Of a stretch of DNA of 64,000 nt, positions 1-32,752 are shown piece by piece (within the stretch, counting starts at the first letter, position 1; the number at the start of each line of letters is the position of its first letter). Source of the stretch: an uncultured Thermoanaerobaculia bacterium (GTDB lineage: Bacteria > Acidobacteriota > Thermoanaerobaculia > Multivoradales > Multivoraceae). The notes under the pieces were generated by a model. It worked only from the letters and a program-made list of their open reading frames with translations, made no database searches and was not told where the DNA came from. The stretch is from assembly GCA_951812325.1 (NCBI GenBank), contig OX638294.1:1138527-1202526 (forward strand). Reading direction: 5' to 3'. A program made the position numbers and the translations under genes.

Positions 1-27
1 GACTATCCGGTCCCGGCGTCCTTCCTG

Positions 28-1413: not shown

Positions 1414-1459
1414 GCGCCTCGCTGAAGGCCGCGCGGACAGGGCTCGGAGGAGGACCGGG

Positions 1460-3223: not shown

Positions 3224-3664
3224 CTACCGGGGCGGTTCAGTCGGGTCGCGACCGTCGCGCGGGGCGCCGGTACCCGAGGAACCCATGAAGATCTTGCTGC
3301 CGTCCTCGAAGGTCACGTCACGGCCGTTCGCGCGGCGTGAGCGGTCCTTGCTCTGGTAGCCGTCCACGATGATCACCGTGCCGGCCTGGAGGTCGTCCCG
3401 GGAGAGGCCGCGGCGCAGGAGGGTGTTGGGCGTGCCGCCCTCGACCATCCAGACGTGCTCGGTGCCGTCTTCCTCGGTGTGCTTGATGTGAATCCAGGTG
3501 TGCGGATTGACCCACTCGACCTTGACGACCGGGCCCTTCAGCAGCAGCGGACGGTTGGGATCAAACTCGGCGCCGAACGCGTGGTGAGCTACCAGGGGCG
3601 CCGCCACCGCGATTGCCGCGACGACAAGGCCGACCCCCGTGATGATCATGGCTCGCTTACTCAT
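3224..3664 (-). CDS. Small secreted protein, DUF6152-like
   Basis: N-terminal signal peptide. Motifs HHAFGAEFDPNRP...KGPVVKVEWVNPH resemble the DUF6152 family. 146 aa. Confidence 0.55.
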   Translation of the reverse strand: MSKRAMIITGVGLVVAAIAVAAPLVAHHAFGAEFDPNRPLLLKGPVVKVEWVNPHTWIHIKHTEEDGTEHVWMVEGGTPNTLLRRGLSRDDLQAGTVIIVDGYQSKDRSRRANGRDVTFEDGSKIFMGSSGTGAPRDGRDPTEPPR

Positions 3665-3739
3665 GGACGTCTCTCACTCCTCTGTTTGTGTCAGTGGTTC
3701 GGTTCGGTCAACAGACTCTAGCAGGATCCGGGCGCGGCT

Positions 3740-4825: not shown

Positions 4826-4901
4826 GCTTGACCTCGCTTTGGCCCGTTGGCGGAAGCGGCGCGACACCAAGGGGCGCGACTCCCGACAGGCGGCGCCGTT
4901 T

Positions 4902-5828
4902 CTAGTCGACCAGCTTCATCCGCGGCAGTGGATTGCGGCGGTACTCGCCGTACATCAGCTCCTCGACGAACTCGACGCACCGGAAGTCCATCAGGCGGGC
5001 GTTCGGCTCCATCCGCCGGTAGAGCGGCATCTCGATCGTCCACGGCTCGGTGTACGTCATCGGATCGGTGAGCGTCGCCTCGTAGTGGAGGTGGTTCGGG
5101 CCGGCAACCGTGAAGCGCTCCTCGACCTGCAACTGGTTGCTGTAGTGGTTGCCCGAGCGGTCGAGCCAGCCGCCGCAGCCGGGCATGTCTTCCGCGCGCT
5201 CGGCGCAGTCCTTGGCCAGCAGGCCGCTGACGTCCACGACCAGCGTGTCGCCATCCCAACGGCCGTAGGACGTGCCCATCCAGCTGTCGACCTGGGACGG
5301 CTTCGGATCTTCCATGTAGATGTCGCGGACCGCGCCGGCGTACTGGTAGGCGATGAAGACCGCGTTCTCGCTGTGGAAGATCTGGAACGGCTGCGGCATG
5401 TACGTCGCACGCGGCACGCCGGGCAGGTAGCAGAAGACTTCCTGGTCGCGGGTTGACCAGTTCGCCATGTTCTCCATCTTCTTCGCGGCTGCCGCGTCCG
5501 TGTACGGGATCTTCCCGCCGCCCTTGATCACGCCCATGCCCGGGGGCACCGAGCCAACCGCGCCGAAGTTGAGAACCTCGGCCGCGGGCAAGGGACCGTG
5601 CGGACCCTCGCGCAACTGCATCGCGGCGCGGGCCATGTGCAACTCGAGGTCGTAGTTCGCCTCGTTCAGGGCCTGCCAGATGCCGTTCAGATCGGGCTTG
5701 CCGTCCGAGAGCCGGTTCGGCTCGAAGTCTTGGGCCGCAAGCGGCGCCACCGCCACGGCGAGAACCGCGACCGCAGCCACGGCAGTTCGAGAAAACGCGC
5801 TAGTTCCCAGTTTCATGACGTTGGCCAT
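4902..5828 (-). CDS. Secreted protein of unknown function (paralogue family A, member 2)
   Basis: Signal peptide. GRWDGDTLVVDVSG and HLHYEATLTDP motifs are shared with the 3740 and 31754 proteins. 308 aa. Confidence 0.6.
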   Translation of the reverse strand: MANVMKLGTSAFSRTAVAAVAVLAVAVAPLAAQDFEPNRLSDGKPDLNGIWQALNEANYDLELHMARAAMQLREGPHGPLPAAEVLNFGAVGSVPPGMGVIKGGGKIPYTDAAAAKKMENMANWSTRDQEVFCYLPGVPRATYMPQPFQIFHSENAVFIAYQYAGAVRDIYMEDPKPSQVDSWMGTSYGRWDGDTLVVDVSGLLAKDCAERAEDMPGCGGWLDRSGNHYSNQLQVEERFTVAGPNHLHYEATLTDPMTYTEPWTIEMPLYRRMEPNARLMDFRCVEFVEELMYGEYRRNPLPRMKLVD

Positions 5829-5969
5829 ACTCCTCTTTCGGCGAAACGCCGAGTTGTCTGAACGGAAGGAAGGTGAACCCTGTCACCTTAGGCGCACGGG
5901 GTCAACCCCAAGCGGTCCGCCCTGCCACGGGCTGCCAGGGTGCGACGAGCGTAACGCACCCTGTCGGCC

Positions 5970-7736
5970 TCAGGGCAGCGCGAAGACGAACAGCGTGTTG
6001 TTCGAGCTCGGACGCAGTTCCGCCGTCAGCCGGCGGAACGTCGACGTCGAGCCGCCCTCGGCGCCGGTGCCGACGGCCACGTACTGCCTCCCGTCCACCG
6101 CGTAGCTGATCGGGAAGCCGGTCACCGAGGAGCCGATGTTGATCTCCCACAGCACCTCGCCCGTCTCCTGGTCCAGCGCCCAGAAGCGGCCGCCGACGTC
6201 GCCGCCGAAGACCAGGCCGCCGCCGGTCGCGGCGAGCGACATCGTCGCGGGCAACCGCTCGTGGAGCCAGAGCGTCTCACCGGTCTCGGCGGAGATCGCG
6301 TAGACCGTGCCGAGCAGTTCCTTCCCCGGCGCGAACTGCGTGTCGTTTACCAGGGCGTAGTGCATCGCGCCGCGGCCGACGCGCGTCGTCATCCGGGAGC
6401 AGAGGTTGCGGAGCGGGTAGTACATCGCGTTGGTCAGCGGACTGTAGGCGCCGGCCTCCCAGTCCTTGCCGCCGAGGAGCGAGGGGCAGATCAGGCGTTC
6501 CTGTTCCAGCTCGGTGAACACGACTTCCGGGTTCAGGGCGACGGCGCCGGTCTCGCCGTCGATCCGTTCGATCACGTTCTGCGGCACCGTCGGCCGCGCC
6601 CACAGGAACTCGCCGGTCTCGCGGTCGAGCGTGTAGACCAGGCCGGTCTTGCCCGGCACACCGGTCACGACCTTGCGCATCTCGCCCGCTTCGATCCGCG
6701 GATTCCGCCAGGCGACGGCCTCGGCGTCCGGCGCGACCGCCGTGTCGACGAGCAACCGCTCGAAGGGATGATCCAGATCCCAGTGGTCGTTCAGGTGCTG
6801 GTAGTACCAGCGCACGCTGCCGGACTCGATCTCCAGCGCCAGCGTCGAGTTGTGGTACAGGTGGGTCTTCTCGTTGCCGCCGATCAGGAACTTCGGCGCC
6901 GGCGAAGTGACCGACGTGCCGACGATGAGGAGTTGAAGATCCGGGTCGTAGCTCGGCGCCATCCAGGAACCGACGTGGTGGCGGTTCTCGAACGGCACGT
7001 CGCCCCAAGTCTCGTTTCCGGGCTCACCCGGTCCCGGAATCAGCGGACGGCGCCAGAGCTCCTCGCCCGTCGCCGCGTCGTGGGCGGCGATGAAACAGGC
7101 CTCGGGGCCCCGGTGCGGCCGGCAGCTGCGCCCCGAGATCACGCGGCCGGCGGCAATGATCGGCCCCGTCGAGTGCCTCGCCGGGTCCTCCTCGTAGTCG
7201 ACGATCCGGGTCTCCCAGACCAGTTCGCCGGTCACCGCGTCGAGCGCGTAGGCGTAGCCGTCGTTCGCCGTGTCGATGATCAGTCCCCCGTAGATCGCGA
7301 GACTGCGGTTGACCGTCTCCAGACCGCCCACCCAGGTCGCGATGTCGTCGGGGATCGGCCGCTTGTACTCCCACAGGAGATCGCCCGCAGCAGCGTCGAT
7401 CGCCTGGGTCACGCTGCTCGGATTCGGGTAGTACATGACGCCGTCGTAGACGAGCGGCGTCCCCTGCTGGCTCCCCTCCTCGAGACCGCGCGACCAAGCC
7501 AGGGTGAGGTCCGCCACGTTCTCCCGGTCGATCTGGTCGAGCGGGCTGTAGGCCCAGCCGTTCTGGGTACGACGCCAGTGGAGCCAGTCCGCGGGATCGG
7601 GCTCCTCCAGCATCGCGTCGGTGACGGGAACGAAGGAGTCGTCGGACTGGGCGCCGGCAGGCAGGCCGATGGCCAGCAGAAGCGCGGGGACCACGACGAT
7701 CCGCAGCGTCAACCGAAGGACGGGCTCTCGACTCAT
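5970..7736 (-). CDS. PQQ-dependent dehydrogenase (quinoprotein alcohol/sugar dehydrogenase family), periplasmic
   Basis: 588 aa with a signal peptide and beta-propeller repeat pattern (PLVYDGVMYY, W-repeat motifs). The family is recognisable from the translation. Confidence 0.8.
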   Translation of the reverse strand: MSREPVLRLTLRIVVVPALLLAIGLPAGAQSDDSFVPVTDAMLEEPDPADWLHWRRTQNGWAYSPLDQIDRENVADLTLAWSRGLEEGSQQGTPLVYDGVMYYPNPSSVTQAIDAAAGDLLWEYKRPIPDDIATWVGGLETVNRSLAIYGGLIIDTANDGYAYALDAVTGELVWETRIVDYEEDPARHSTGPIIAAGRVISGRSCRPHRGPEACFIAAHDAATGEELWRRPLIPGPGEPGNETWGDVPFENRHHVGSWMAPSYDPDLQLLIVGTSVTSPAPKFLIGGNEKTHLYHNSTLALEIESGSVRWYYQHLNDHWDLDHPFERLLVDTAVAPDAEAVAWRNPRIEAGEMRKVVTGVPGKTGLVYTLDRETGEFLWARPTVPQNVIERIDGETGAVALNPEVVFTELEQERLICPSLLGGKDWEAGAYSPLTNAMYYPLRNLCSRMTTRVGRGAMHYALVNDTQFAPGKELLGTVYAISAETGETLWLHERLPATMSLAATGGGLVFGGDVGGRFWALDQETGEVLWEINIGSSVTGFPISYAVDGRQYVAVGTGAEGGSTSTFRRLTAELRPSSNNTLFVFALP

Positions 7737-7873
7737 ACTCGGACTCCCAATTCCGTGCTCGACGCCCCGCCGCCCGATGGCGGCCGGGAGGTCGGCCCAC
7801 CCGATGCGCCAATTCAGGCTTCCTGCGCAGAGAGCGGCGAGCGTAGCGCAGGCAGCGGCGCTATCCTCGCGCG

Positions 7874-9124
7874 ATGCCTGCGACCGACAACGGCCGGATC
7901 GTGATCACCGGGCTCGGCGCCGTAACGCCGGTTGGCAATGACGTGACAACCTTCTGGCGGCGGATGAAGGCCGGGGACTCGGGCGCCGGCCCGATCACCG
8001 CGTTCGACACGGAGGCGTTCAACGTCAAGATCGCCTGCGAGGTACGCGACTTCGACCCAACCGAGTGGCTGGCCGGCAAGGCGGCGCGCAGGATCGCGCG
8101 CTCGACCCACTTCGCGGTGGCCTCGGCCAAGCAGGCGGTTGCCCACGCGGGGCTGGCAATCGACCCGGCCGTGGCGCATCGGCACGGCGTCGCTTTCAAC
8201 ACCGGGGGCGGGGGCGCGTCGAGCATGGAGAGCGGCACGCGCCGGCTCGTCGCGCGTGGTCCGCGGAAGGCGAACCCGTTTCTCGTCACCGACGTGATGC
8301 CGAACGCCGTCTCCTGCCTGATCTCGATCGAACTCGGCGTGACCGGGCCGACGACGACCTCCACCATGGCCTGCGCAAGCGGCAACTATGCCCTGCTCGA
8401 GGCCTACCGGCTGCTGCGCTCGGGCGAAGTCGACGCAGTGATCGCCGGCGGCACGGAGGCGGCCATCACGCCGCTGATCGTCGCGACCTTTTCGCGGCTC
8501 CAGGCTCTCTCCACCCGCAACGACGACCCGCCGGCAGCCAGCCGGCCGTTCGACGCCGACCGCGACGGCTTCGTCTTCGGCGAAGGCGCCGCCGCGTTCG
8601 TCGTCGAGACCGAGCGCCACGCGGAGAAGCGGGGCGCCCACGTCTACGCCGAGGTGCGCGGGGGCGCCGTGACCGCCGACGCGCATCACCTGACCGCTCC
8701 CCGCCCCGACGGCGCCGGCGCGGCGGCCGCGATGACGCGAGCCCTCGAATCGAGCAACACGGACCCCGGCGAGGTCGACGCGGTGTTCGCGCACGGTACG
8801 GCCACACCGCTCGGCGACGTCGCCGAAACCCTGGCGATCAAGGCGGCGATCGGCGACCGGGCCAAAGATGTCGCCGTGGCCGCCACGAAGTCCCAGGTCG
8901 GCCACATGCTGGGCGCCGCCGGCGCGGTATCGGCACTCGCCGCGGTCAAGACGATCGAGGAGGGCACGATCTGCCCGACGATCAACCTCGAGCAGCCCGA
9001 TCCGCAGTGCGACCTGGACTACGTGCCGAACCGGGCCCGTGCCCACCCCACCGGCGTCGCGCTCGTCAACGCCTTCGGCTTCGGCGGCCAGAACGTGGTC
9101 GTCGTCCTCGCCGACGCCAACTAA
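7874..9124 (+). CDS. fabF: Beta-ketoacyl-ACP synthase II
   Basis: 416 aa. Starts with the typical RIVITGLGAVTPVGN, has the active-site Cys in MACASGNYA, the HGTAT motif with catalytic His, and a GFGGQN C-terminus. Confidence 0.9.
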   Translation: MPATDNGRIVITGLGAVTPVGNDVTTFWRRMKAGDSGAGPITAFDTEAFNVKIACEVRDFDPTEWLAGKAARRIARSTHFAVASAKQAVAHAGLAIDPAVAHRHGVAFNTGGGGASSMESGTRRLVARGPRKANPFLVTDVMPNAVSCLISIELGVTGPTTTSTMACASGNYALLEAYRLLRSGEVDAVIAGGTEAAITPLIVATFSRLQALSTRNDDPPAASRPFDADRDGFVFGEGAAAFVVETERHAEKRGAHVYAEVRGGAVTADAHHLTAPRPDGAGAAAAMTRALESSNTDPGEVDAVFAHGTATPLGDVAETLAIKAAIGDRAKDVAVAATKSQVGHMLGAAGAVSALAAVKTIEEGTICPTINLEQPDPQCDLDYVPNRARAHPTGVALVNAFGFGGQNVVVVLADAN

Positions 9125-17740: not shown

Positions 17741-17771
17741 TCAGGGCGGCCCTTCGGGGCCGCCCTTTTTC
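17741..17771 (+). terminator. Rho-independent terminator of groESL
   Basis: GGGCGGCCC-TTCG-GGGCCGCCC followed by TTTTT. Confidence 0.7.
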
Positions 17772-17951
17772 CTATGCCGGGAGCGTTTGCCATCCAGGAG
17801 CCTGCTCCGCACGGGTCGCCAGCGCGCAGCCGGCAAGCGCCGGGGCCGACCACGGCAGCCGGGCCGCTCTGCCCCCGCTCCGGTGTTCTGACGCTGGTAT
17901 CGTCCCCTCGATCCACTCGACCGTCCGTCGAGAAGAGAGGCAATCCGCCCC

Positions 17952-19025
17952 ATGTCATCGGCTCCACACGATCAACCCGTCTGGCTCTGGTGGAGCGGCG
18001 GCAAGGACTCGGCGTGGGCCCTGCACACGCTGCGGAACGATCCGGAGTGGGAAGTGCGCGGGCTCGTGACACATGTCAACCGGCACAACGGTCGGGTGGC
18101 CATGCATGGAGTGCATCGACACATGATCGAGCGACAGGCGGCCGCGGTCGGCCTGCCGCTCCATGTGATCGAGTTCGACTGGGCGGCGTCCCGGAACGAT
18201 CACGACGCCGCCATCGAGGAGGGCCTCCTGCGCTGGTGCCGGGGCGGCCGGAAGTTCGTCGCCTTCAGCGAGCTCCTTCCCGGCCGTGCCATGCGACGCC
18301 GTTCGGCGCTTGTCGGCCGCATCGGACTCCACGCCGTGTTCCCGCTGCTCGGCCGCGACCCGGCCGACCACGCCGCGGAGATCCTGGAGGCAGGTTTGAA
18401 GGCCAGGGTGTGTTCCGTCGAATCGGACCGCCTGCCTGCCTGCCACGCGGGTTGCCGCTTCGACGAGGACTTCGTGGGGTCGCTGCCGCGAGGCGTCGAC
18501 CCCTGCGGCGAGGACGGCGAGTTCCACACGTTCGTCGAATGGGCGCCCGGGTGGTCGTCGCGGATTCCGACCGACGCTGGCGCCAGAATCGAGTGCTACG
18601 GCTTCGGATTCGCGGAGATCGTGGAGTCCTCTCGGGCGCCGCGGAAGGAAGAAGACCGCCGCCCCGGGACCGGCAACGACCCCTTCGGCTACTACGCCCG
18701 GCTGAGGAGGGTCCGCGAGCACGTCGATCAACATCTCGACGAGCCTCTCGACCTGCACGCTCTCGCGCCCGTCGCGGCGATGAGTGCCGGGGGGTTCGGC
18801 AGGTTCTTCCGCAAGGCCACCGGCCAGTCGTTCCACGATTGGCTCAACGAGCGCCGCCTCGAGCGGGCCGCCGTCCTCATCGGCGACCACAACGAACCGA
18901 TCGGGCGAGTGGCGGAGACCGTCGGTTTCGGTTCTGAACGAACGTTCCGGAGGTTGTTCCAGGGGAGATTCGGCTGTACTCCCTCGCGGTTCCGATCTCA
19001 GGCACGGGATACAGAAGCGGGATAG
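17952..19025 (+). CDS. Fusion protein: N-terminal PP-loop ATP pyrophosphatase (Dph6/MJ0570/DUF71-like, SGGKDS) and C-terminal AraC-family HTH domain
   Basis: N-terminal part: WLWWSGGKDSAWAL (the SGGxDS PP-loop) and a GEFHTFV motif, as in diphthine-ammonia ligase-like N-type ATP pyrophosphatases. C-terminal part, about 100 aa: LHALAPVAAMSAGGFGRFFRKATGQSFHDWLNERRLERAAVLI..ETVGFGSERTFRRLFQGRFGCTPSRFR, a canonical AraC HTH. It is a single uninterrupted 357-aa ORF. Confidence 0.65.
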   Translation: MSSAPHDQPVWLWWSGGKDSAWALHTLRNDPEWEVRGLVTHVNRHNGRVAMHGVHRHMIERQAAAVGLPLHVIEFDWAASRNDHDAAIEEGLLRWCRGGRKFVAFSELLPGRAMRRRSALVGRIGLHAVFPLLGRDPADHAAEILEAGLKARVCSVESDRLPACHAGCRFDEDFVGSLPRGVDPCGEDGEFHTFVEWAPGWSSRIPTDAGARIECYGFGFAEIVESSRAPRKEEDRRPGTGNDPFGYYARLRRVREHVDQHLDEPLDLHALAPVAAMSAGGFGRFFRKATGQSFHDWLNERRLERAAVLIGDHNEPIGRVAETVGFGSERTFRRLFQGRFGCTPSRFRSQARDTEAG

Positions 19026-19110
19026 ACGCGCCAGGCAGCCGCTCCAGACGGGTGGCAGTCCGGGACCGCTCTCGCCTCGATTCGCGGGCTCTTGCCACGG
19101 GCTGCCTAAG

Positions 19111-21077
19111 CCGAAGTTCTTGAGCTTCTGCGGCCCCGTGATGGTCGATAGTCGTTGCCAGGCTTGGGTTTGCGGGTTGTTGGCCGGTCGTTCGGGGGCG
19201 CATATCGTAGCCATGTAAAAATGAGAGAAGAGGTAGACAGTCACGACGATCTAGAGTACAATGCGAAGCCATGTACATCGAGAGCATACGCAACCGGAAC
19301 TCGCCGCCTGCCGTCCTGCTTCGAGAGTCCTACCGCGAGCACGGCAAGGTCAAGAAGCGCACACTCGCCAACCTCTCCAAGTGGCCGGACCATCTCGTCG
19401 AGGGGCTGAGGACCCTCCTCAGGGGCGGCGTCGCACTGCCGTCTCTCGATGCCGCCTTCGACATCGTCCGCGCCAGACCGCATGGACACGTTGCCGCCAC
19501 GCTCGGCGCCGCCAGACGGGTCGGTATCGAGCCCTTGCTCGACCGGAGGCGGTCGAGACAACGCAGCCTCGCGACCGCGATGATCGCCGCGCGCATCCTC
19601 GATCCCCGGTCCAAACTCGCGACCGCGCGAGGACTCGCGTCCGAAACGATCACTTCGACCCTCGGTGAAGAACTCGGTGTCGAGGAGGCGTCGGCCAGCG
19701 AGCTCTACGAGGCGATGGACTGGCTGCTCAAGCGGCAACCGCGAATCGAGCGGCGCCTGGCCAAGCGCCACCTCGAGGAAGGAGCCCTGGTCCTCTGCGA
19801 CCTGACCTCGGTCTACTTCGAGGGCTCGTCCTGCGAGCTTGCCGTGCACGGGTACTCCAGAGACCGCAAACGGGGCAAGGTGCAGATCACCTTCGGCCTG
19901 CTCTGCAACCAGGACGGCTGCCCCGTGGGGGTCGAAGTCTTCTCGGGCAATACCGCGGACCCCTCGACAGTGGCCGCGCAGGTGCACAAGCTCAAGGAAC
20001 GCTTCTCGCTGGACCGGGTGGTCATGGTCGGCGACCGCGGCATGATCACCGATGCGCGCATCAGGGAGGACCTCGACCCCTCCGGACTCACGTGGATCAG
20101 CGCCTTGCGGGCGCCGGCGATCCGCTCCCTGGCCGAACAGGGCCACCTGCAGCTGTCTCTCTTCGACGAGAGAGGCCTCGCCGAGATCAGCGCTCCGGAG
20201 CTCTTCCCCTCAGAGCGGCTGATCGCGTGCAGGAACCCCCTGCTGGCCGACGAACGCGCCCGCAAGCGCCAGGAACTGCTCTCCTCCACCGAGGTCCAGC
20301 TCGAAGCCATCGTCAAGGCCACACGGCGCCAGAAGAACCCCTTGCGCGGCAAGGTCAAGATCGCCGCACGCGCCACGCGCGCCCTCGACCGCTTCAAGGT
20401 CGCAAAGCACTTCGAAACCGAGATCGAGGACGACAGCTTCAGCTATCGCCGCAATCAGGCACGCATCGACGAGGAAGCCGCACTCGACGGCTTCTACATC
20501 ATCCGCACCAACGTCCCCGAGGACCAACTGACCGCGGCCGATGCCGTGCGCTCCTACAAGAGCCTCAGCCGCGTCGAACGCGCCTTCAGGAGCCTGAAGA
20601 GCGTCGACCTCAAGGTGCGGCCCATCTACCATCGACTCGACGACCGGGTACGCGCCCATGTCTTCCTGTGCATGCTCGCCTACTACGTCGAGTGGCACAT
20701 GAGGCGCGCACTCGCACCCCTGCTCTTCGACGACGAAGACCACGACCACAACACCCGATCACCCGTCCTGCCCGCCCGCAGATCGGCCACCGCCATGGCC
20801 AAGGTCAACTCAAGGCGAACCACCCACGGATTCCCCGTACACAGCTTCCAGACACTCCTCGCCGACCTCGCCACGCTCACACGCAACCGGGTCCGAATCC
20901 AGCAAGCCGGCGACTCCACTGCCGATCTGCTGGCCACGCCAACACCTCTTCAGAACCAGGCCCTCAAACTCCTGGGCGTGAAACCCTGAGGACACGTACC
21001 CAGTAGGCTGCAACCCCAAATCGACGAAAAACCCCACCACTACAGGGGATTCCTCGATTCCGCGCCGAGAACTTCGG
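19111..21077 (+). mobile_element. IS1634-family (IS4 superfamily) insertion sequence, about 1.96 kb, with imperfect terminal inverted repeats and a target-site duplication
   Basis: Left end CCGAAGTTCTTGAGC and right end GCCGAGAACTTCGG (reverse complement CCGAAGTTCTCGGC) are flanked by a duplicated CCTAAG / GCCTAAGCC (6-9 bp; the exact boundary is ambiguous). The uninterrupted target GGCGGCCTAAGCCGGAATCAGGTCT is present in the paralogous locus at about 26310-26336. Confidence 0.8.
19271..20989 (+). CDS. IS1634-family DDE transposase
   Basis: 572 aa. MYIESIRNRNSPPAVLLRESYREHGKVKKRTLANLSKWPDHLVEGLR is the hallmark N-terminus of IS1634/IS1549-type transposases. The DDE region is downstream. Confidence 0.9.
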   Translation: MYIESIRNRNSPPAVLLRESYREHGKVKKRTLANLSKWPDHLVEGLRTLLRGGVALPSLDAAFDIVRARPHGHVAATLGAARRVGIEPLLDRRRSRQRSLATAMIAARILDPRSKLATARGLASETITSTLGEELGVEEASASELYEAMDWLLKRQPRIERRLAKRHLEEGALVLCDLTSVYFEGSSCELAVHGYSRDRKRGKVQITFGLLCNQDGCPVGVEVFSGNTADPSTVAAQVHKLKERFSLDRVVMVGDRGMITDARIREDLDPSGLTWISALRAPAIRSLAEQGHLQLSLFDERGLAEISAPELFPSERLIACRNPLLADERARKRQELLSSTEVQLEAIVKATRRQKNPLRGKVKIAARATRALDRFKVAKHFETEIEDDSFSYRRNQARIDEEAALDGFYIIRTNVPEDQLTAADAVRSYKSLSRVERAFRSLKSVDLKVRPIYHRLDDRVRAHVFLCMLAYYVEWHMRRALAPLLFDDEDHDHNTRSPVLPARRSATAMAKVNSRRTTHGFPVHSFQTLLADLATLTRNRVRIQQAGDSTADLLATPTPLQNQALKLLGVKP

Positions 21078-21089
21078 CCTAAGCCGGAA

Positions 21090-21914
21090 TCAGGTCTGGA
21101 CCATCGTCTCCAGGTAGACGCCCTCGAGATCCGCCTGATCCAGGGCCTCCCGATCCAGGATGCGCTCCATCCTGCCCTTGCGCATGATGCCGACCCGGTC
21201 GCAGAGACTCTGCGCCCGGAGCAGGTCGTGGGTGCAGATCAGGATCGCGGCGCCGTCGCAACGCATCCCGTCCAGCAGGGTCAAAAGGTCCGCTGCCGCC
21301 TTCGGATCGAGACCTGACGTGGGTTCGTCCAGGAGAATCGCGGGCGCGCTGCGAATCACCGCCACCGCCAGACCGACACGCTGACGCATGCCCTTCGAGA
21401 ACCGGTCGACGCGCCGATCAAGGACATCCTCGGCCAGCCCCACACGAAGAAGCGCCTCGCGAACGCGGTCCCTGGTCGGCGACACTCGCTGGCCCACCGC
21501 GCTGAAGAACTCCGCGTTCTGCACCGCGGTCAACGCCGGGTAGAGGGCCACGTTCTCGGGAATGAGGTCGAGGCGGCGCTTTGCTCTGCGAGGCTCGCGG
21601 GCGACCTCGATCCCGTCGATCAGGGCGCGGCCACCCGTGGGTCGGATGAAGTCGAGGAACATGTTGATCGTCGTCGTCTTGCCGGCGCCGTTCGGCCCCA
21701 TCATGCCGAGAATCTCTCCCGGCGCCACTTCGAAATCCACGCCGTCGACGGCAAGCGTGTCGAACAGCATCATCGGTACACGCTGCTCGTATGGAACGGA
21801 AACGATCGTCGGCTCCAGCAGCACGCCTTCCTGATGGCCGCGAACGGTCTTGAGGCTGACGATCGTGCCGACGGCAGCTCCGCCCGTCTCGCGGCGCGTC
21901 CTCCCGCTCACCAA
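21090..21914 (-). CDS. Chimeric ABC transporter ATP-binding protein (copy A). The ATPase lacks its native N-terminus and is fused to a fragment of the periplasmic-protein gene; possibly a pseudogene
   Basis: From AVDGVDFEVAPGEILGMMGPNGAGKTT to the C-terminus it is identical to the ATPase at 26337-27071. Residues about 17-50 (IVSLKTVRGHQEGVLLEPTIVSVPYEQRVPMMLFD) match an internal segment of the 27068-28606 protein. Walker A/B and the signature motifs are intact. Confidence 0.6.
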   Translation of the reverse strand: MVSGRTRRETGGAAVGTIVSLKTVRGHQEGVLLEPTIVSVPYEQRVPMMLFDTLAVDGVDFEVAPGEILGMMGPNGAGKTTTINMFLDFIRPTGGRALIDGIEVAREPRRAKRRLDLIPENVALYPALTAVQNAEFFSAVGQRVSPTRDRVREALLRVGLAEDVLDRRVDRFSKGMRQRVGLAVAVIRSAPAILLDEPTSGLDPKAAADLLTLLDGMRCDGAAILICTHDLLRAQSLCDRVGIMRKGRMERILDREALDQADLEGVYLETMVQT

Positions 21915-26163: not shown

Positions 26164-26336
26164 TTGACTACAACGGTCGAGGAAGCCACGAGAAGGTCTG
26201 AGAAGAGAGTCTAGGGTCGGAGGCCTTCACCTGTCAAGTGCCAGAGCTGTCCAGCGTTCGGCGTTGCCCGGCTGCTGTTCGCTTCGTGACGAGGCCTCGA
26301 TTCGCGGACTCTTGCCGCGGGCGGCCTAAGCCGGAA

Positions 26337-27071
26337 TCAGGTCTCGACCATCGTCTCCAGGTAGACGCGCTCCAGATCCGCCTGATCCAGGGCCTCCCGA
26401 TCCAGGATGCGCTCCATCCTGCCCTTGCGCATGATGCCGACCCGGTCGCAGAGACTCTGCGCCCGGAGCAGGTCGTGGGTGCAGATCAGGATCGCGGCGC
26501 CGTCGCAACGCATCCCGTCCAGCAGGGTCAAAAGGTCCGCTGCCGCCTTCGGATCGAGACCTGACGTGGGTTCGTCCAGGAGAATCGCGGGCGCGCTGCG
26601 AATCACCGCGACCGCCAGACCGACACGCTGACGCATGCCCTTCGAGAACCGGTCGACGCGCCGATCAAGGACATCCTCGGCCAGCCCCACACGAAGAAGC
26701 GCCTCGCGAACGCGGTCCCTGGTCGGCGACACTCGCTGGCCCACCGCGCTGAAGAACTCCGCGTTCTGCACCGCGGTCAACGCCGGGTAGAGGGCCACGT
26801 TCTCGGGAATGAGGTCGAGGCGGCGCTTTGCTCTGCGAGGCTCGCGGGCGACCTCGATCCCGTCGATCAGGGCGCGGCCACCCGTGGGTCGGATGAAGTC
26901 GAGGAACATGTTGATCGTCGTCGTCTTGCCGGCGCCGTTCGGCCCCATCATGCCGAGAATCTCTCCCGGCGCCACTTCGAAATCCACGCCGTCGACGGCA
27001 AGCGTGCCGTCCTCGAACCTCTTCGTGAGTCCGATTGCCTTGATCACTGTCGACTCTCCAATGTGGGTCAG
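26337..27071 (-). CDS. ABC transporter ATP-binding protein (copy B, intact)
   Basis: IKAIGLTKRFEDGTLAVDGVDFEVAPGEILGMMGPNGAGKTT (Walker A), LSKGMRQRV signature, and ILLDEPTSGLD Walker B. The start is taken as the TTG/GTG just after the upstream gene's stop; the ORF track's longer start at 27152 overlaps that gene. Confidence 0.85.
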   Translation of the reverse strand: MTHIGESTVIKAIGLTKRFEDGTLAVDGVDFEVAPGEILGMMGPNGAGKTTTINMFLDFIRPTGGRALIDGIEVAREPRRAKRRLDLIPENVALYPALTAVQNAEFFSAVGQRVSPTRDRVREALLRVGLAEDVLDRRVDRFSKGMRQRVGLAVAVIRSAPAILLDEPTSGLDPKAAADLLTLLDGMRCDGAAILICTHDLLRAQSLCDRVGIMRKGRMERILDREALDQADLERVYLETMVET

Positions 27072-28606
27072 CGTCGGCTGAGGAGGATGCCGCCCCGGAT
27101 CAGCGCCGCGAGCAGCGCCACCACGGCAGCCAAAAGAAGCAACGCCAGCCACGGATTGCGGGCTGCCGTCACGTGAATGCGAACTGTCTTGGGATCGCTC
27201 TCCACCAGACGATCACCAGCCAGCGTGCCGACGACGATCGTCCCTTCGTAGTCCCCCAGGATCACGTCGGCGGGCGGCGCAAGCGTCACGTTGACCGCTT
27301 CGCCGGTGCCGGGGGCGAGCGCATCGAACAGCCGCGGTTCCGCTCCCACCCGCCAACCGAACGGCGCCTCGACAACGACTTCCACCTGCTCGAGATCCAG
27401 ACTGCCCGCATTGACGATCCTGACTTCGAACGAGCCGGTATCGCCGCGCAGAATCTCCTGGTAGAGGTTCGCCGCCTCGACCTCGAGCGCGGCGACACCG
27501 CGCGGAATGAGCTCCAGATCCAGCCTGCCCCCGCCTCCGGCCGCGTCACGGTCGGGCTCGAACAACACGGAGAACGGAATCGACGTGCCCGGCTGCACCG
27601 CAGCCGTCGGTCGACTCGGCAACGTCAGCGCCAGACGCAGACTGCGGCTGGTCACCCCCTCCGACAGGAACATCTGACTGAACGTCGCCTCGGTCTCGGG
27701 ATCAAAGAGCCGCGCCGCAACTTCGGGCGGAAGACCCTCAAGCCGCACTCCGTACGTCGCGTCATCGACGTCGAAGCGCTCCACCTCAAGGACGAACTCG
27801 GCCTCTTCACCCAGTTCAGCGTCCAGGGCAAGCTGAGCGGAACGCACGACCAAGGGTTCCTCGGCGCCGGATCGCTTGCCCAACAGGACCTGTCGATCGT
27901 GGGTCTGATGATTGTAGCGAAGCTCGACGAGCAACTCCTCGACATCGGCCAGAAGAAGTCCGAAGTCGACGGTGGTCGGTTCGTCGAACAGCATCATCGG
28001 TACACGCTGCTCGTATGGAACGGAAACGATCGTCGGCTCCAGCAGCACGCCTTCCCGATGACCGCGAACGGTCTTGAGGCTGACGATCACGTTCGATACG
28101 CCGGTCGGAAGCGGCAGGTCCAGCAAACCGCCCGACTGCTGCTCGACCACTTCCGCCTCGACGCCGGAGGACCAGCGCGCCACCAGCTCCAGTTCGACAC
28201 GGGCCTCGCCGTCGGGCCGCCTGTACTTCCGGGCCGCGCGCAGGACGACCTCGGGATCCGCCGCGATCATCTCCAGATAGGCTTGTGCCAGATCGAGATC
28301 CGCGAGCCTGAGCTGCGCTTTCTCCGTATCCAGCTCCGCCTCGGAGAGCAGCTCGTTCTCGAACAGCTCCTCGGCGCGACCGAGCTGCTTCTCGGCTTCC
28401 TCGTACCTGATCCGGGCAGCCGCGTACTCGAGGCCAAGCCGACCCGAAGCCTCCGTCTGACCAGGCGCCGGCCCCGCCGCCGCGACGATCAGGAGGGCGG
28501 TAGCGGCCAGGCCCGCGAAACCGTCCCGGCGCCGCCTGAACCTGGCGGGCCAGGCCGCCTGGGGCCTGGCGGTAGCGGCGGCCGTTCGATCAAGAGCGGC
28601 GGGCAT
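27068..28606 (-). CDS. Periplasmic protein with N-terminal coiled coil, beta-sandwich-like repeats and a C-terminal TM anchor (component of the transporter locus)
   Basis: About 512 aa from the MMPAALDR start. There is an N-terminal signal/TM segment, a coiled-coil stretch (EEAEKQLGRAEELFENELLSEAELDTEKAQLRLADLDLAQ), and a C-terminal hydrophobic helix (WLALLLLAAVVALLAALI). It is absent from copy A apart from the fused fragment. Confidence 0.55.
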   Translation of the reverse strand: MPAALDRTAAATARPQAAWPARFRRRRDGFAGLAATALLIVAAAGPAPGQTEASGRLGLEYAAARIRYEEAEKQLGRAEELFENELLSEAELDTEKAQLRLADLDLAQAYLEMIAADPEVVLRAARKYRRPDGEARVELELVARWSSGVEAEVVEQQSGGLLDLPLPTGVSNVIVSLKTVRGHREGVLLEPTIVSVPYEQRVPMMLFDEPTTVDFGLLLADVEELLVELRYNHQTHDRQVLLGKRSGAEEPLVVRSAQLALDAELGEEAEFVLEVERFDVDDATYGVRLEGLPPEVAARLFDPETEATFSQMFLSEGVTSRSLRLALTLPSRPTAAVQPGTSIPFSVLFEPDRDAAGGGGRLDLELIPRGVAALEVEAANLYQEILRGDTGSFEVRIVNAGSLDLEQVEVVVEAPFGWRVGAEPRLFDALAPGTGEAVNVTLAPPADVILGDYEGTIVVGTLAGDRLVESDPKTVRIHVTAARNPWLALLLLAAVVALLAALIRGGILLSRR

Positions 28607-30060
28607 CATCGGCAATCGTAGCTTGCGAAGCGCCGGGCGACCCATCCGGTTGCACCCGCCACGAAGAGCACCATCCATAGAACGTCTCCCACCGTCTGGT
28701 TCACCAGTTCTCCCGGCGATGGCCGGCGCCAGGCGAACCGCGGCCCCTCGCCGGGCCGTATCGGGAGCGCCGCGTAGGACAGGCCCGTGATCCCGCGCAG
28801 TCGGTATTCCTCGCCCTCCGCGTCCTGGATCAAGGCCATCGCCACGCCTTCGCCCGCTTCATCGCGTCGCTGTCGTCTCTGGTCGATCACGAACTCGGTG
28901 AAGGTCGGCTCGAACCGGTCGACCTGCCGCAGGAACTCCCTCTCGCCGCTCCACCCGGCAAAAGAAAGCCGATCCAGCGAGCGGCGCAGCAGACTGAACG
29001 GCGAGAGAGCGCTGAACTTCTCCGTCCATGTCCGTTGCGCCGCCGACTGGCGCAGATAGTCGCGACGCACTTCCGCCAGGGCTCGCTCCTGCTCCGCCAG
29101 GGCGGCTTCCTGATCCGCCATCATGTCGGCTTCGAGTGACGCGATCCGGGCACGCTTCTGAGCCGGCGAGAGGTCCTCCCTGTTCACGATCCCGGCGAGC
29201 GCCTCAGACGAGACCGAGAGCCGTTCCCGGAACTCCATGGACACGAGCCCGAAGTTCCGCTGCAGTTCGGCCTCCGATTCCAGCGGATGGAGCATCGAGC
29301 CCGCCACCGTGACGCCGGCCGGCACGACCAGCGCCAGAACCGTCCAGGCGCCCAAAGCCCTCTGCAGCGCGGCCGCCGGTCGAGCGACGCTGACCGATGC
29401 GGCCACTCCGAGCAGCACGTTGAACAGGAGAAACACGAGCACCAGCATGACCGCCAGGACAAGGTTCGGAGCTGTCTCGGCGGAAAGGGAGCCGCCCCCG
29501 TCAACCGCGACCACGGCAAGCGAGGCCACCGCACCGAGGACGAAGGAGAGGGCGACGACCAGGAAGCTGCCGGCGATCTTGCTCAGGATGAGCGACATGC
29601 GCCCGATCGGTCTGGCTGTCAACACCCGGAGGGTTCCCTGGGCCTTCTCGCCCGCCACCGCATCGTAGGTCAGAGCCACGGCCATCAGGCTGTATAGAAG
29701 GACGACGACAGCGGCCCAGTCGAGAGGCTGGGCGACGAAGACCCACGACCGCTCGGAAACACCCGGAATGACAGGCGCCGCCAGGTGGGGCCGCAAGACG
29801 GTTGCCTCCGTTCGATCGGCGCCGTCGGCCGAAACGAAACCCAGAGTCGGGTACGGCCGCGGCAGGAGGACCCAGTCCAGATTCGCGTCGCTCTCCGCAG
29901 ACCGGGCGAGACGCGAGTAGGCGGACACCTGCTCCCGCAGGTCGATCTGGTGGATCGTCGCGGCGACGACCATGCACAGGGGGCCCGCCACGACCGCCAG
30001 CAGCAGCCTGTAGCTCTTGAGATGGCGAGTCAGTTCGCCAAGAACCAGGACACGGAACAT
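28606..30060 (-). CDS. ABC-2-type transporter permease with a large extramembrane domain (copy B)
   Basis: 484 aa, paralogue of 21936-23393. Confidence 0.65.
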   Translation of the reverse strand: MFRVLVLGELTRHLKSYRLLLAVVAGPLCMVVAATIHQIDLREQVSAYSRLARSAESDANLDWVLLPRPYPTLGFVSADGADRTEATVLRPHLAAPVIPGVSERSWVFVAQPLDWAAVVVLLYSLMAVALTYDAVAGEKAQGTLRVLTARPIGRMSLILSKIAGSFLVVALSFVLGAVASLAVVAVDGGGSLSAETAPNLVLAVMLVLVFLLFNVLLGVAASVSVARPAAALQRALGAWTVLALVVPAGVTVAGSMLHPLESEAELQRNFGLVSMEFRERLSVSSEALAGIVNREDLSPAQKRARIASLEADMMADQEAALAEQERALAEVRRDYLRQSAAQRTWTEKFSALSPFSLLRRSLDRLSFAGWSGEREFLRQVDRFEPTFTEFVIDQRRQRRDEAGEGVAMALIQDAEGEEYRLRGITGLSYAALPIRPGEGPRFAWRRPSPGELVNQTVGDVLWMVLFVAGATGWVARRFASYDCR

Positions 30061-30066
30061 CGTTCT

Positions 30067-31329
30067 TCAGACCCCCGCCTCGGTCAGGTCCAGCTTCTCG
30101 AAGCCGATCACGCCGCCAACCAGCAGAAGGGTCGTGAAGAGCGAAAGCGCGCCAACCGGGAGTGCCGCGCCACGGAGCGAAGCTTCGACCGGGAGCGGAC
30201 GATACTCCGGCGCCGGCAGACCTCCGATGTCGAGAGCCTCCTGGCCGCTGTGCATCGTGTTCTCGCGCTCAGGGTAGCGCTCCAGTTTCTCCGCCTGCCA
30301 CGCGATGAATCTTCTCTCCACGTCGTCCACATCGGCGAGAAACGCGATGTGGTCATCAACGGATGTCGTGGCCACCAGCCGCGCAGCCTCCTGGAATGCG
30401 GTGACCGGGCCAAGCGAGGCCAACGTCCGGTACCGCATGTACTGCTCGGCCCGCACGTTGCGCCGGGTGCGAATCGCCGCACGCCGAGCGGCCACGTCCC
30501 GGTCGGCCGACGCTGCCGCGGCTTCCAGCGCAGGCGGCGCTGCGCGCGTAGCCGCCCAACCCGCCAGAGGCTGGTAGAGCGCGGCCGAGGACACCCAGAT
30601 CAGGATGCCGACCAGAAGCGACGTCTCCCGCTGCCTGAGGAAGACCGAGAGACACAGGGAAAGAGCCACCCAGAACGCGCCGTAGAGAGTCGCAAGGCCG
30701 AAGAACAGGAGAACCCGAAGCCACTCGCGACCGTCCAGCGAAGGACCAGCCGTGGCCGCCCAGGCCAGAAAGCCGAGGCAGAACAGCAGCAGCGGAATCG
30801 CCACGACGATCAGGCCGCCGAGGAACTCGCCAAGCAGCAGGTGCGGCCTCGGCAGACCGCTTCGGAGCTGGAGCTTGAGCGTACCGGCCCGTCGCTCGCC
30901 GTTGATCACGCCGTGACCGGCGAAGACGCCGGTGAAGCCGAGCACCAGCGCGAAGGTCCAAGCCAGATCCGCGTTCAGTCGCCGCGCCGCACCCGTTCGC
31001 GGCCGGTCGCGCCGCGCAAGCTCGGGCTCGCGATAGCGGCCCCTGATCCTCGCGCTCACGCCGAGATCCTCACCGACCCCTCGGCTGATCAGGCTCAGCG
31101 GCGTCGGCGGCCGCTCGAAACCGATCTCCACGCCGACGTACACCGTGGCGTCCTCCGCCTTCACCCGCTGAGCGATCCGGTTGCCTTCGAACAGATCAAC
31201 GCGCTCCCCGTAGCCGATCCACCCGACCCAGACCGTAGCCGCCGCCAGCGCAGCGCCCACGGCCCAGGCGCCAAGCAGCCAGCCGCTCCGGGCACTGAGA
31301 CGGCAGCGCTTCAGCGCGATTCTCAGCAT
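30067..31329 (-). CDS. ABC-2-type transporter permease (copy B, second permease)
   Basis: 420 aa, paralogue of 23420-24676. Confidence 0.65.
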   Translation of the reverse strand: MLRIALKRCRLSARSGWLLGAWAVGAALAAATVWVGWIGYGERVDLFEGNRIAQRVKAEDATVYVGVEIGFERPPTPLSLISRGVGEDLGVSARIRGRYREPELARRDRPRTGAARRLNADLAWTFALVLGFTGVFAGHGVINGERRAGTLKLQLRSGLPRPHLLLGEFLGGLIVVAIPLLLFCLGFLAWAATAGPSLDGREWLRVLLFFGLATLYGAFWVALSLCLSVFLRQRETSLLVGILIWVSSAALYQPLAGWAATRAAPPALEAAAASADRDVAARRAAIRTRRNVRAEQYMRYRTLASLGPVTAFQEAARLVATTSVDDHIAFLADVDDVERRFIAWQAEKLERYPERENTMHSGQEALDIGGLPAPEYRPLPVEASLRGAALPVGALSLFTTLLLVGGVIGFEKLDLTEAGV

Positions 31330-31753
31330 TCGCGTTCTTCCAGCAAGTCAGGGCGAAAGGCGCGATGGCCCTTTGGCGTCTCCTCCCTGGAGGTTGTCGT
31401 CAATGGAGGTGGATACAACCGCACACGGTTGGCTTTGCCTGGCGCCGCCGCCTTGCGAGCTGGCGAGTCCGCTGAATCGATCAGCGAGTCCGTCAGCGCG
31501 TTCCGCGTGTTGGGCATCGGTCACAAGAAACAGGCTAGCCGAGCGCCGCAGTCGGCAATAGGGCCCTCAGACGACCAAAACCGGACACCAGAGAACCAGA
31601 AACGGCCAATCCGGTACCCGGCGCCGGTTTGCTGGCCGAACCACCCGGACCGTTTCCGCCGCCGCGGCGCCGACCGTGACGCCCATCGCTCCGGGATGGA
31701 GCAAACCGAGAGTGGCGATGGTCAAGGGATCGCCTGTCGCCGTTCGGCCGGCG

Positions 31754-32752
31754 TCAGCCGCCCGACGTCCCCGCCGCCCTGGCGGCCGCCTCGGCTTCCG
31801 CGTCCTCCGCCCGGGCGCCGCGAAGCAGGTTCAACATGCCGTAGTTCCCCTCGTGGCAGGCGTACTCGAACATCGGCAACGGGTTCCTCGTCATCGGCAC
31901 GACGGCCGTCCACCGTCCGGTGAAGGACTCCGGATCGTCGATCGTGTACTCGTAGACGAGCCGGTCCTGCTCCACGCGGGTGAACCTCTCGGTCAGGCGC
32001 ATGTTCGGGCCCGAACCCCGGAAGCTCGTCTGGTCGGTGAAGTTCGTCGTCACGACGACCAGGGTGTCCCCTTCCCAGTGGCCTCGCGAGTCGCCCCGCC
32101 ACTGGCGGACGTCCTCGGGCAGCGGGGAGCGTCCGTCGAGCGGCACGATGCGCGAGTCGTGCACCATCTCGACCAGCAGCGCGACCGTCTCCTCGGTCTG
32201 GAAGATCTGGACGTTGTTGTTGTACGCACTCGGACTCATCGGCGGCCCGGCGTTGAAGCCCAGGATGCACCGTTCGGCGACGCCGCGGTCCTCGGGCCCG
32301 TGGGCGGGTCGGCGGCGCGCCGCGGTGCGCTCGGCAACCCGTTGCTTCGCCGCCTGGGTCAGCTCGGGAATCCGGCCGTCCGGCGGATCGACGACGAGCG
32401 ATGTGCGCCGATCCTCGGTCAGCTTGTCCCCGTAGTCCCACCAGAACTGGTTGTAGGCGTTCGCCACGTCCGCCTGAGCCGAGAGACCGTCCTCGGTGCG
32501 CCGGTCCTTGTTTCGCCGCGCCAGCGTCCGCTGCTCGAACTCCGCCGCCTCTTCGCCGCTGAACCGCTCCTGCTCGCCCAGCTCCTCCGGACGCTCGAGC
32601 GGCGTGATCGTCCGGAAGTCCCAGACCCCGCGCAGGTCGGGCGCGCCCCAGGGAGTGCGATCAAGCTCCGGCGCGCCTTGTTGCGCGGCGAGGGGAGTTC
32701 CAGCCAACACGACGATGGCGAACACTGCGATCGGCGTCTTGCGTTTGCCCAT
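31754..32752 (-). CDS. Secreted protein of unknown function (paralogue family A, member 3)
   Basis: Signal peptide. GHWEGDTLVVVTTNF, LVYEYTIDDP and FEYACHEGNY motifs are shared with 3740-4825. Confidence 0.6.
   Translation of the reverse strand: MGKRKTPIAVFAIVVLAGTPLAAQQGAPELDRTPWGAPDLRGVWDFRTITPLERPEELGEQERFSGEEAAEFEQRTLARRNKDRRTEDGLSAQADVANAYNQFWWDYGDKLTEDRRTSLVVDPPDGRIPELTQAAKQRVAERTAARRRPAHGPEDRGVAERCILGFNAGPPMSPSAYNNNVQIFQTEETVALLVEMVHDSRIVPLDGRSPLPEDVRQWRGDSRGHWEGDTLVVVTTNFTDQTSFRGSGPNMRLTERFTRVEQDRLVYEYTIDDPESFTGRWTAVVPMTRNPLPMFEYACHEGNYGMLNLLRGARAEDAEAEAAARAAGTSGG

Follow-up and report, generated by a model that had tools for sequence, protein, structure and literature searches.

A candidate family of one-component regulators that joins a DUF71-type PP-loop domain to an AraC/XylS-type DNA-binding domain in uncultured Acidobacteriota

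We analyzed a 64,000-nucleotide stretch of DNA (hereafter the window; GenBank contig OX638294.1, positions 1,138,527 to 1,202,526) from an uncultured Thermoanaerobaculia bacterium, in which a single gene joins a PP-loop ATP pyrophosphatase domain to an AraC-type DNA-binding domain (DBD). This fusion gene is one uninterrupted open reading frame (ORF) that begins with ATG and encodes 357 amino acids followed by a stop codon (Table 1). A plausible Shine-Dalgarno (SD) sequence, GAGAGG, is located 11 to 17 nucleotides 5′ of the start codon, and the GC content at third codon positions (GC3) is high, matching that of other genes in the window. The gene is real and intact.

A preliminary description of this DNA, made from the letters and a list of ORFs, had proposed that a PP-loop domain and an AraC helix-turn-helix (HTH) domain share one ORF, and this assignment is borne out by searches with each half of the protein. 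The N-terminal half matches Diphthami_syn_2 (PF01902, formerly DUF71/ATP_bind_4) with 82.7 bits against a cut-off of 23.2 (E 3.7e-23, profile positions 6-212 of 219), and the C-terminal half matches HTH_18 (PF12833; amino acids 271-349, 68.6 bits against 33.6) and HTH_AraC (PF00165; 45.7 against 26.6), such that all three domain models that it had suggested for a search score above their cut-offs. The best NCBIfam match for the DBD is FtrA. When the sequences of solved structures in the PDB were searched, amino acids 12-219 matched the N-type ATP pyrophosphatase PF0828 (3rjz; E 2.4e-12), and amino acids ~250-350 matched the DBDs of SoxS, MarA and AraC. The two motifs named in the preliminary description, SGGKDS and GEFHTFV, are both where it placed them, the second within GEDGEFHTFVEW (amino acids 186-197).

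Structure prediction agrees with these assignments. An AlphaFold2 model of the full-length protein, built on a 46-sequence family alignment, has a mean predicted local distance difference test (pLDDT) score of 91.5 and consists of two compact domains joined by a disordered linker (amino acids 231-240); the DBD comprises seven helices with pLDDT values of ~95. How the two domains are oriented toward each other in this model is uncertain, given the predicted template modeling (TM) score of 0.66. Foldseek matched the N-terminal domain to PH1257 and PF0828 (2d13 and 3rk1; TM-score to target of ~0.8, E 2e-13), and the C-terminal domain to AraC-type DBDs that include 3oio, 3mkl and SoxS (TM-scores to target of 0.8-0.87). 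This search returned no solved structure that covers both domains.

Table 1. Coordinates of the fusion gene, its domains and related features of the window
Feature	Amino acids	Window position	Strand	Basis or remark
Strong intrinsic groEL terminator (10-bp stem and T-run)		17743..17766	+	Predicted to shield the fusion gene from groESL transcription
Proximal upstream region (…CTGACGCTGGTATCGTC…ACCGTCCGTCGAGAA…SD)		17857..17951	+	Conserved with orthologs; alignment
Fusion gene	1-357	17952..19025	+	
N-terminal Diphthami_syn_2 domain (DUF71, PP-loop ATP pyrophosphatase fold)	13-221	17988..18614	+	Pfam, Foldseek
PP-loop SGGKDS, canonical in the window copy	15-20	17994..18011	+	Sequence
C-subdomain signature GEDGEFHT, followed by FVEW	186-193	18507..18530	+	Sequence; His192 corresponds to PF0828 position 188
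Interdomain linker, low complexity, length varies among homologs	~226-243	18627..18680	+	pLDDT <50 at amino acids 231-240
AraC/XylS-type DBD, two HTH motifs	~250-352	18699..19007	+	Pfam, PDB sequence match, Foldseek
IS1634-family insertion sequence		19114..21077	+	Transposase 19271-20989, 329 bits to NF033559
Second ABC-2 operon (DrrA-like ATPase, two ABC2_membrane permeases, NPCBM_assoc protein)		26337..31329	-	Domain matches; possible target
Candidate operator, only exact repeat copy in the window		31582..31608	+	Within a segment homologous to the ortholog upstream region
c14 remnant (DUF1932/NAD-binding dehydrogenase), first 35 codons		31621..31725	-	74% identical; abuts the operator segment

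The search for further examples of this fusion that the preliminary description had recommended uncovered a lineage-restricted family with multiple paralogs. Of 120 listed clusters defined at 90% identity, the great majority (more than 100) show the continuous fused architecture, and the linker varies in length among them. A scan that used one genome per species yielded 266 related loci, and about 75 of the best 80 of these encode the fusion, representing ~35 species-level metagenome-assembled genomes (MAGs). Among 1.84 billion representatives at 50% identity, about a dozen span both domains, and the other hits among the 113 at E ≤ 1e-30 are mostly stand-alone DUF71 proteins. All fused members derive from Acidobacteriota MAGs that are assigned to Ca. 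Multivorans, Ca. Multivoraceae or Thermoanaerobaculia, or that carry the older labels Holophagales and Vicinamibacteraceae, and the family is thus confined to Ca. Multivoradales/Thermoanaerobaculia. The bin names of many of these MAGs hint at sponge or coral hosts. Genomes commonly carry several paralogs, up to about seven, with OZ220688.1 containing seven loci of which two are partial. Genes in the fetched loci were called with our own GC3-based method, whose errors include over-extended starts and antisense ORFs such as c26, and the loci compared across the family are not phylogenetically independent.

The N-terminal domains of the fused proteins form a group of their own. Clustering by the unweighted pair group method with arithmetic mean placed 117 fused proteins in one cluster apart from 90 stand-alone proteins in 99 of 100 bootstraps, and a nearest-neighbor test produced no mismatches between the fused and stand-alone classes, although both procedures are less rigorous than a maximum-likelihood tree. 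Because the fused proteins occupy a single cluster, the fusion apparently arose once and was followed by duplication into the multiple paralogs observed per genome. Comparisons with eight orthologs give dN/dS ratios of 0.22-0.32 for the N-terminal domain and 0.11-0.21 for the DBD, indicating that both halves are under purifying selection.

DNA-binding partners appear to be unusual for the DUF71 fold. The one comparative study of this family, from 2012, listed fusions with AsnB-type and RidA domains and none with regulators (de Crécy-Lagard et al., 2012; PMC3541065). Among the proteins recovered here (P0153, P0155, P0175, P0199, P0207, P0228, P0245 and P0271), other bacterial DUF71 domains are fused to GNAT acetyltransferases (at the N- or C-terminus, in several clusters), to a 4′-phosphopantetheinyl transferase or to DUF2284, and a tandem duplication of DUF71 is also found; these arrangements are likewise undescribed.

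The GEFHT motif had been taken in the preliminary description as typical of diphthine-ammonia ligase (Dph6), but this identification is contradicted by the His that it contains. Dph6 proper carries an EGGE/DxE188 signature with a catalytic Glu188, and bacteria lack both diphthamide and EF-2 (PMC3541065). The clade that includes all bacterial sequences (‘DUF71-B12’, the bacterial/second-archaeal group) instead carries ENGE(F/Y)H188; it has been tied tentatively to B12 salvage, with its function left unassigned (PMC3541065). The window protein, whose host is a bacterium, has His192 rather than Glu at the position equivalent to 188, and it fails the NCBIfam equivalog model for Dph6 (TIGR03679; 53.3 bits against a cut-off of 197.3). 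These two results rule out a Dph6 identity for the enzyme half. The window motif reads E-D-G-E-F-H, and the position equivalent to G189 varies among D, G and N across the clade. From these signatures, the input half is best placed in PF01902 outside Dph6, and it can be called ‘DUF71-B12’ only loosely.

The nearest non-fused relatives are ‘TIGR00290 family’ proteins of 220-236 amino acids that carry SSGKDS and GENGEFHT, at 41-47% identity; the stand-alone DUF71-B12/TIGR00290 proteins in general have 220-240 amino acids, at 35-47% identity. Two of the nearest relatives adjoin genes for BtuF-like Peripla_BP_2 proteins, and one of these loci also includes a TonB-dependent receptor gene, a context that matches the one published for DUF71-B12 (PMC3541065). 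At the locus of the closest stand-alone gene (L080:7001-7835, a metagenomic contig), where the BtuF-like gene is 1.5 kb away, the DUF71 gene overlaps by 17 nucleotides a 46-amino-acid ORF that matches MerR-type HTH models. This tiny ORF may be a decayed or mis-called regulator beside the enzyme.

We compared 117 fused proteins with 93 stand-alone proteins position by position. In PF0828, the site for the ATP phosphates is lined by S12, G13, G14, K15, D16, H48 and T189 (PMC3541065), and the window protein has a counterpart for each one (S15, G16, G17, K18, D19, H52 and T193) in its predicted ATP site. Residues W14, G17, K18, D19, H52, Q62, A63, P131, G167, D183, G186, E190, F191 and H192 are conserved in both fused and stand-alone proteins. 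The fused clade retains nearly every residue that is conserved in stand-alone proteins, with relaxation at Y84, L110 and G189, and it has a conserved set of its own that includes H140, C154, E196, W197 and W201. Little or no variation is seen at E190, H192 and T193 in any paralog group, and 99% of members carry H52. We take the retention of this pocket across the whole family to indicate that a ligand is bound.

The PP-loop is less uniform. It is canonical or nearly so in 100 of 115 aligned fused proteins, and the 15 exceptions exchange the Asp or a Gly residue (e.g. SGGKES, SGGKNS, SGGKGS, SGGKSS, SGGKAS, TGDNEA and NGDKDA). In the paralog group that is adjacent to trp genes, the Asp is replaced by Glu, Asn or Gly in 10 of the 23 members in the loci studied. 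Within the orthogroup of the window gene, the loop is canonical in 10 of 11 proteins, including the window copy, and the eleventh (L002) is unaligned over this region. Because the catalytic Asp is replaced so often within one paralog group, catalysis is probably not essential for regulation. We therefore favor a sensor role for the DUF71 domain, although the window copy could still be an active enzyme as predicted from its residues.

A candidate DNA site for these proteins emerged from alignment of the regions upstream of the orthologs, which revealed a conserved block with two GAAyCGGACAAsAG units spaced 21 bp apart. In one sub-branch of the orthologs, both units switch jointly to CGGCCA. We searched for exact matches to CGG[AC]CA-N15-CGG[AC]CA and found that the repeat also occurs near members of other paralog groups whose neighbors are unrelated. 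Its position differs between groups: group 3 has it at about -86 to -73 and the trp group at about -280, and in others it follows the stop codon by 55-260 bp. Within 400 bp upstream of family genes, the repeat reaches a density of 0.92 per kb, and within 400 bp downstream 0.25 per kb, compared with 0.015 per kb inside these genes and 0.029 per kb in the remainder of the loci (0.20 per kb in intergenic and 0.0125 per kb in coding DNA overall). This corresponds to a ~30-fold enrichment just upstream of family members.

To control for a pattern chosen after inspection, we also tabulated the start-to-start spacing of half-sites, which is more discriminating than a test based on 6-mers. Counts in this histogram rise abruptly to 61 pairs at 21 bp, with shoulders of 31 and 13 pairs at 20 and 22 bp and a harmonic at 41-42 bp; other distances have a mean of 6.8. 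An additional C is conserved at position +14 of each unit in 54 of 62 unique sites, such that a unit can be written as CGG[AC]CA-N8-C. This bipartite arrangement of ~21 bp is as expected for an AraC-type domain with two HTH motifs. Exact sites are present near 9 of 11 members of group 1, all four members of group 3, and 11 of 24 members of the trp group. From these patterns, we infer that the repeat is a candidate operator bound by the fusion proteins.

Other genes flanked by sites are recurrent neighbors of the family, grouped here in numbered clusters: c1 (TIGR03436 VWA protein), c3 (CarboxypepD_reg), c30 (which looks sulfatase-like), c69 and c74. Triple tandem arrays of CGG[AC]CA units with a 21-bp period also occur away from the fusion genes (L007:4452-4499, L016:11308-11355, L035:10245-10292, L044:5269-5316 and L004:7847-7894). 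These arrays are located upstream of genes for the c1 VWA protein, c74, c183 and c316, which are possible additional targets of the family.

The window locus itself departs from the arrangement seen in its orthologs. Orthologous loci carry, in order, genes for M16 peptidases, groES-groEL, a variable gene or two in the opposite orientation, the candidate operator, the fusion gene, and then a convergent c17-c8-c14 block that encodes a major facilitator superfamily protein (c17), a secreted protein (c8) and a DUF1932 NAD-binding dehydrogenase (c14), with a gene for an ATP-binding cassette (ABC) ATPase, c2, beyond c17. In the window, the fusion gene begins only 185 bp after the groEL terminator, and a sigma-70 scan between this terminator and the start codon found no promoter match. 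The sole sigma-70-like match in the scanned stretch is at 19234-19262, just 5′ of the transposase gene of the insertion sequence (IS).

The sequence in front of the fusion gene is homologous to the ancestral intergenic region from about -95 on; the more distal portion of that region is now found at 31,45x-31,615, where it includes the operator copy. The separation of these distal and proximal homologous segments indicates that the ancestral intergenic region has been split between the operator and the proximal part. The candidate operator thus lies 12.5 kb downstream of the fusion gene, and 253 bp upstream of the gene at 30067-31329 (- strand), which is the first gene of the second ABC-2 operon. 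Relative to ortholog L007, where ABC-related genes are upstream, the order of the block containing the ABC genes and operator and of the fusion gene is swapped. The c14 gene, which in orthologs points toward the fusion gene's 3′ end and is intact in the loci L006, L008, L009, L010 and L035, has evidently been destroyed by rearrangement in the source genome, as judged from its remnant. A rearrangement involving an IS1634-family element has evidently parted the fusion gene from its ancestral candidate operator.

The IS1634-family element has terminal inverted repeats (AAGTTCT/AGAACTT), and its 9-bp target, CCTAAGCCG, is duplicated on the two sides (19105-19113 and 21078-21086). The insertion interrupts the region that flanks an ABC ATPase gene on its 3′ side, and the uninterrupted paralogous flank corresponds to 26294-26345. 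Two related sets of ABC-2 transporter genes follow the element. Stretches of 300 and 106 nucleotides are 98-99% identical between the two sets (21075-21374 versus 26322-26621, and 21759-21864 versus 27983-28088), a further stretch is shared (19074-19113 versus 26294-26333), and the remainder is much more diverged, a pattern suggestive of gene conversion or of a recent duplication that was only partial. The c8 family of secreted proteins, which has no Pfam or NCBIfam match, is represented in the window by two paralogs with ~41% identity (31754-32752 and 3740-4870, both on the - strand); every orthologous locus has one c8 copy as the conserved downstream neighbor of its fusion gene.

The preliminary description had also pointed to the position of the fusion gene beside the IS and the transporter locus, which the protein might regulate. 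The argument from adjacency does not hold, because the proximity is peculiar to this genome and was produced by the rearrangement; adjacency alone is no evidence of regulation. The ABC locus is likewise rejected as a conserved downstream target, given that the orthologs have the convergent c17-c8-c14 block in this position and c2 beyond it. Regulation as such is plausible, since the candidate operator precedes the second ABC-2 operon, and control of this transporter by the fusion protein would then occur in trans.

Paralogs occupy quite different neighborhoods. In many genomes, members of the largest paralog group immediately follow a complete trpE-G-D-C-B-A operon and have the same orientation (L014, L015, L018, L021, L022, L030, L037, L040, L041, L058, L059 and L072, around positions 1-8000). 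Beyond these fusion genes are VWA and CarboxypepD_reg secreted proteins, an EamA transporter and an extracytoplasmic function (ECF) sigma/anti-sigma pair; the trp genes, the EamA gene and the sigma pair were assigned by visual inspection of the sequences rather than by domain search. Neighbors of other paralogs include VWA (TIGR03436), CarboxypepD_reg, sulfatase-like, gamma-glutamyltranspeptidase-like, beta-lactamase-like and ApaH-like proteins, several of which were likewise recognized only by eye. For the trp-adjacent group, carboxylates of the tryptophan pathway are worth testing as candidate ligands.

Taken together, it seems fairly probable that these proteins are one-component regulators of the AraC/XylS family in which the usual N-terminal module for ligand binding and dimerization has been replaced by a DUF71 domain of the His188 clade that serves as the input. 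The C-terminal domain would bind the repeats, with one two-HTH domain per 21-bp unit as for AraC at araI1-I2, and binding would bring about autoregulation and control of adjacent genes, most of which encode secreted proteins or transporters. The DUF71 domain would provide the signal through occupancy of its pocket, probably by ATP and a carboxylate metabolite, and occupancy may alter dimerization or free the DBD. Catalysis would probably be dispensable for this regulatory role. In the source genome, the protein could still act in trans on the relocated site upstream of the ABC-2 exporter operon.

Several observations weigh against this reading. No exact site is present upstream of the window fusion gene itself, and 35 of 62 family genes have no exact repeat nearby, which could reflect diverged specificity because recognition helix 3 of the DBD (SAGGFGRFFRKA) changes from one paralog group to another and helix 6 (SERTFRRLF) hardly varies. 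An unbiased 6-mer test enriches the half-site only ~3-fold, which is modest support, and the ~30-fold value was obtained with a pattern derived from the same loci, many of them orthologous and not independent. A different regulator could bind the repeat. Our survey of gene neighborhoods for a clue to the ligand revealed no shared theme beyond secreted proteins, and all member genomes are uncultured MAGs. Finally, the near-complete retention of catalytic residues in most paralogs, including the window copy, fits an active enzyme equally well.

The last point bears on the two options raised in the preliminary description, an enzyme recruited as a sensor and a bifunctional enzyme-regulator, both of which remain live readings. 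In the second, the proteins would resemble BirA, in that an active ATP-dependent ligase or amidase acts on a carboxylate and the acyl-adenylate, or the availability of substrate, switches DNA binding. SGGKDS, H52 and E190-F191-H192-T193 are intact in the window copy and in 10 of the 11 orthogroup members, the eleventh being the unaligned one, and the family-wide residues are conserved to the same level as in stand-alone enzymes. The other fusion partners described above are enzymes, suggesting that the domain is normally catalytic. The replaced Asp or Gly in 15 of 115 loops, concentrated in one paralog group, argues that catalytic loss is tolerated; relaxation at Y84, L110 and G189 points the same way, and multiple paralogs per genome suit a regulator better than a housekeeping enzyme. 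On balance, we regard a bifunctional protein as somewhat unlikely.

A related and rather doubtful idea, by analogy with known enzyme-regulators, is an adenylation-coupled AraC switch, in which the DUF71 domain would adenylate a carboxylate metabolite and either the acyl-adenylate or co-occupancy by ATP and substrate would serve as the co-regulator. If so, nature would have built a BirA-like enzyme-regulator from unrelated parts, and the paralog-specific operators would offer a genetic read-out for the substrate class of the His188 DUF71 clade.

It is improbable that these proteins are corrinoid regulators that respond to cobamide precursors and keep the B12-related specificity proposed for DUF71-B12 relatives. 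The His188 signature is common to that clade, and the nearest stand-alone relatives have the BtuF-like and TonB-dependent receptor neighbors noted above. However, no btu, cbi or cob genes (btuCDF and cbiB among them) are present among the annotated neighbors at the window, ortholog and paralog loci, where ~20 representatives of recurrent neighbor clusters were scanned with Pfam, and no cobalamin riboswitch was detected in the window or in five representative loci (L003, L009, L014, L024 and L016). Indeed, no Rfam family reached its gathering score in these 149 kb (window positions 1-64000 plus the five loci), be it a tRNA, a riboswitch or a small RNA family. A B12 link for the fused family is therefore unsupported. 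The pocket also differs from that of the stand-alone clade at the fused-specific residues H140, C154, E196, W197 and W201, and a single ligand would not readily account for several paralogs in one genome.

A pseudoenzyme scaffold, in which DUF71 would serve for dimerization only, with no small-molecule input, and the protein would be a constitutive AraC-type activator or repressor, is more improbable still: degenerate loops such as TGDNEA, NGDKDA and SGGKGS would suit it, but a pure scaffold would not need the (near-)invariant E190, H192 and T193 or the nearly universal H52, and the ω values of 0.22-0.32 for the N-terminal domain argue against it as well. An assembly or sequencing artefact, including a frameshift, that fused two separate genes can be dismissed, for although the rearranged flanks leave nearby assembly errors conceivable, nothing directly supports such an origin, and the identical protein is encoded on contigs of 4.63 Mb and 45.9 kb from independent assemblies, continuous fused ORFs with variable linkers recur in ~35 other genomes and more than 100 clusters, and both halves show constrained dN/dS.

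The architecture had been suggested to be undescribed. Our literature searches, which included the lineage name and yielded nothing relevant by it, found no description of the PP-loop/DUF71-AraC family, its lineage-specific expansion or its candidate operator. The fusion is not unique to this genome, however, and databases already label members automatically as ‘helix-turn-helix domain-containing protein’ or with a pair of COG names, as in the JGI entry ‘diphthamide synthase/AraC-like DNA-binding protein’. Recruitment of enzyme folds into AraC regulators and bifunctionality of enzyme-HTH proteins are also known already, such that the principle is not new.

What a family of this kind would add is the PP-loop ATPase fold among the enzyme folds recruited as AraC input modules, one paralog group in which the catalytic Asp is being lost, and a lineage-specific regulatory expansion in Ca. 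Multivoradales, a group of uncultured Acidobacteria. Above all, the family offers a way into the function of bacterial DUF71 proteins. Bacterial DUF71/COG2102 proteins were set apart from Dph6 in 2012 with their function unassigned (PMC3541065). With DUF71 wired to a DNA-binding output and a candidate operator, this function becomes a question for reporter assays, and the ligand that switches the regulator would point to the substrate of the whole DUF71 clade. Should the operator or ligand predictions fail, the family would be merely another of the many AraC domain architectures.

Comparison with known systems places the family between several established types of protein. Like AraC, MarA, SoxS, Rob and other AraC/XylS regulators, its members carry a C-terminal two-HTH domain of ~100 amino acids. 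AraC binds tandem direct repeats with a 21-bp period at araI1-I2, and the candidate operator of the fusion family is likewise a tandem direct repeat with this period. The family differs from these regulators in its N-terminal module, which has a PP-loop ATP pyrophosphatase fold rather than a cupin or AraC_binding domain. With the DUF71-B12/TIGR00290 proteins it shares the fold, the PP-loop, H52, the GE-x-GE(F/Y)H-T signature and His188, but those proteins are stand-alone and often encoded beside BtuF-like or TonB-receptor genes, whereas the fused clade lacks B12 context among its annotated neighbors and has its own pattern of relaxed (Y84, L110, G189) and gained (H140, C154, E196, W197, W201) positions. 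The likeness to Dph6 (PF0828 and yeast YLR143W) extends to the Diphthami_syn_2 fold and the ATP-binding residues, and ends with the His in place of Glu188, the failed equivalog model and the DBD.

Enzyme folds are known to serve as input domains of AraC-type proteins, as evident by the GATase1/DJ-1-like regulators FtrA, GbdR and CdhR, and also by Ada. The fusion family resembles these proteins in that an enzyme fold takes the place of the cupin as the input for an AraC DBD, but the recruited fold is a different one and its catalytic motifs are mostly retained. BirA and NadR combine an adenylate-forming or nucleotidyl-transferring enzyme with an HTH domain, and in BirA the acyl-adenylate is the corepressor. 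By analogy, these proteins are possible mechanistic counterparts of the fusion family, although the folds are unrelated: a class II aminoacyl-tRNA synthetase-like domain with a winged HTH on the one hand, and a PP-loop domain with an AraC DBD on the other.

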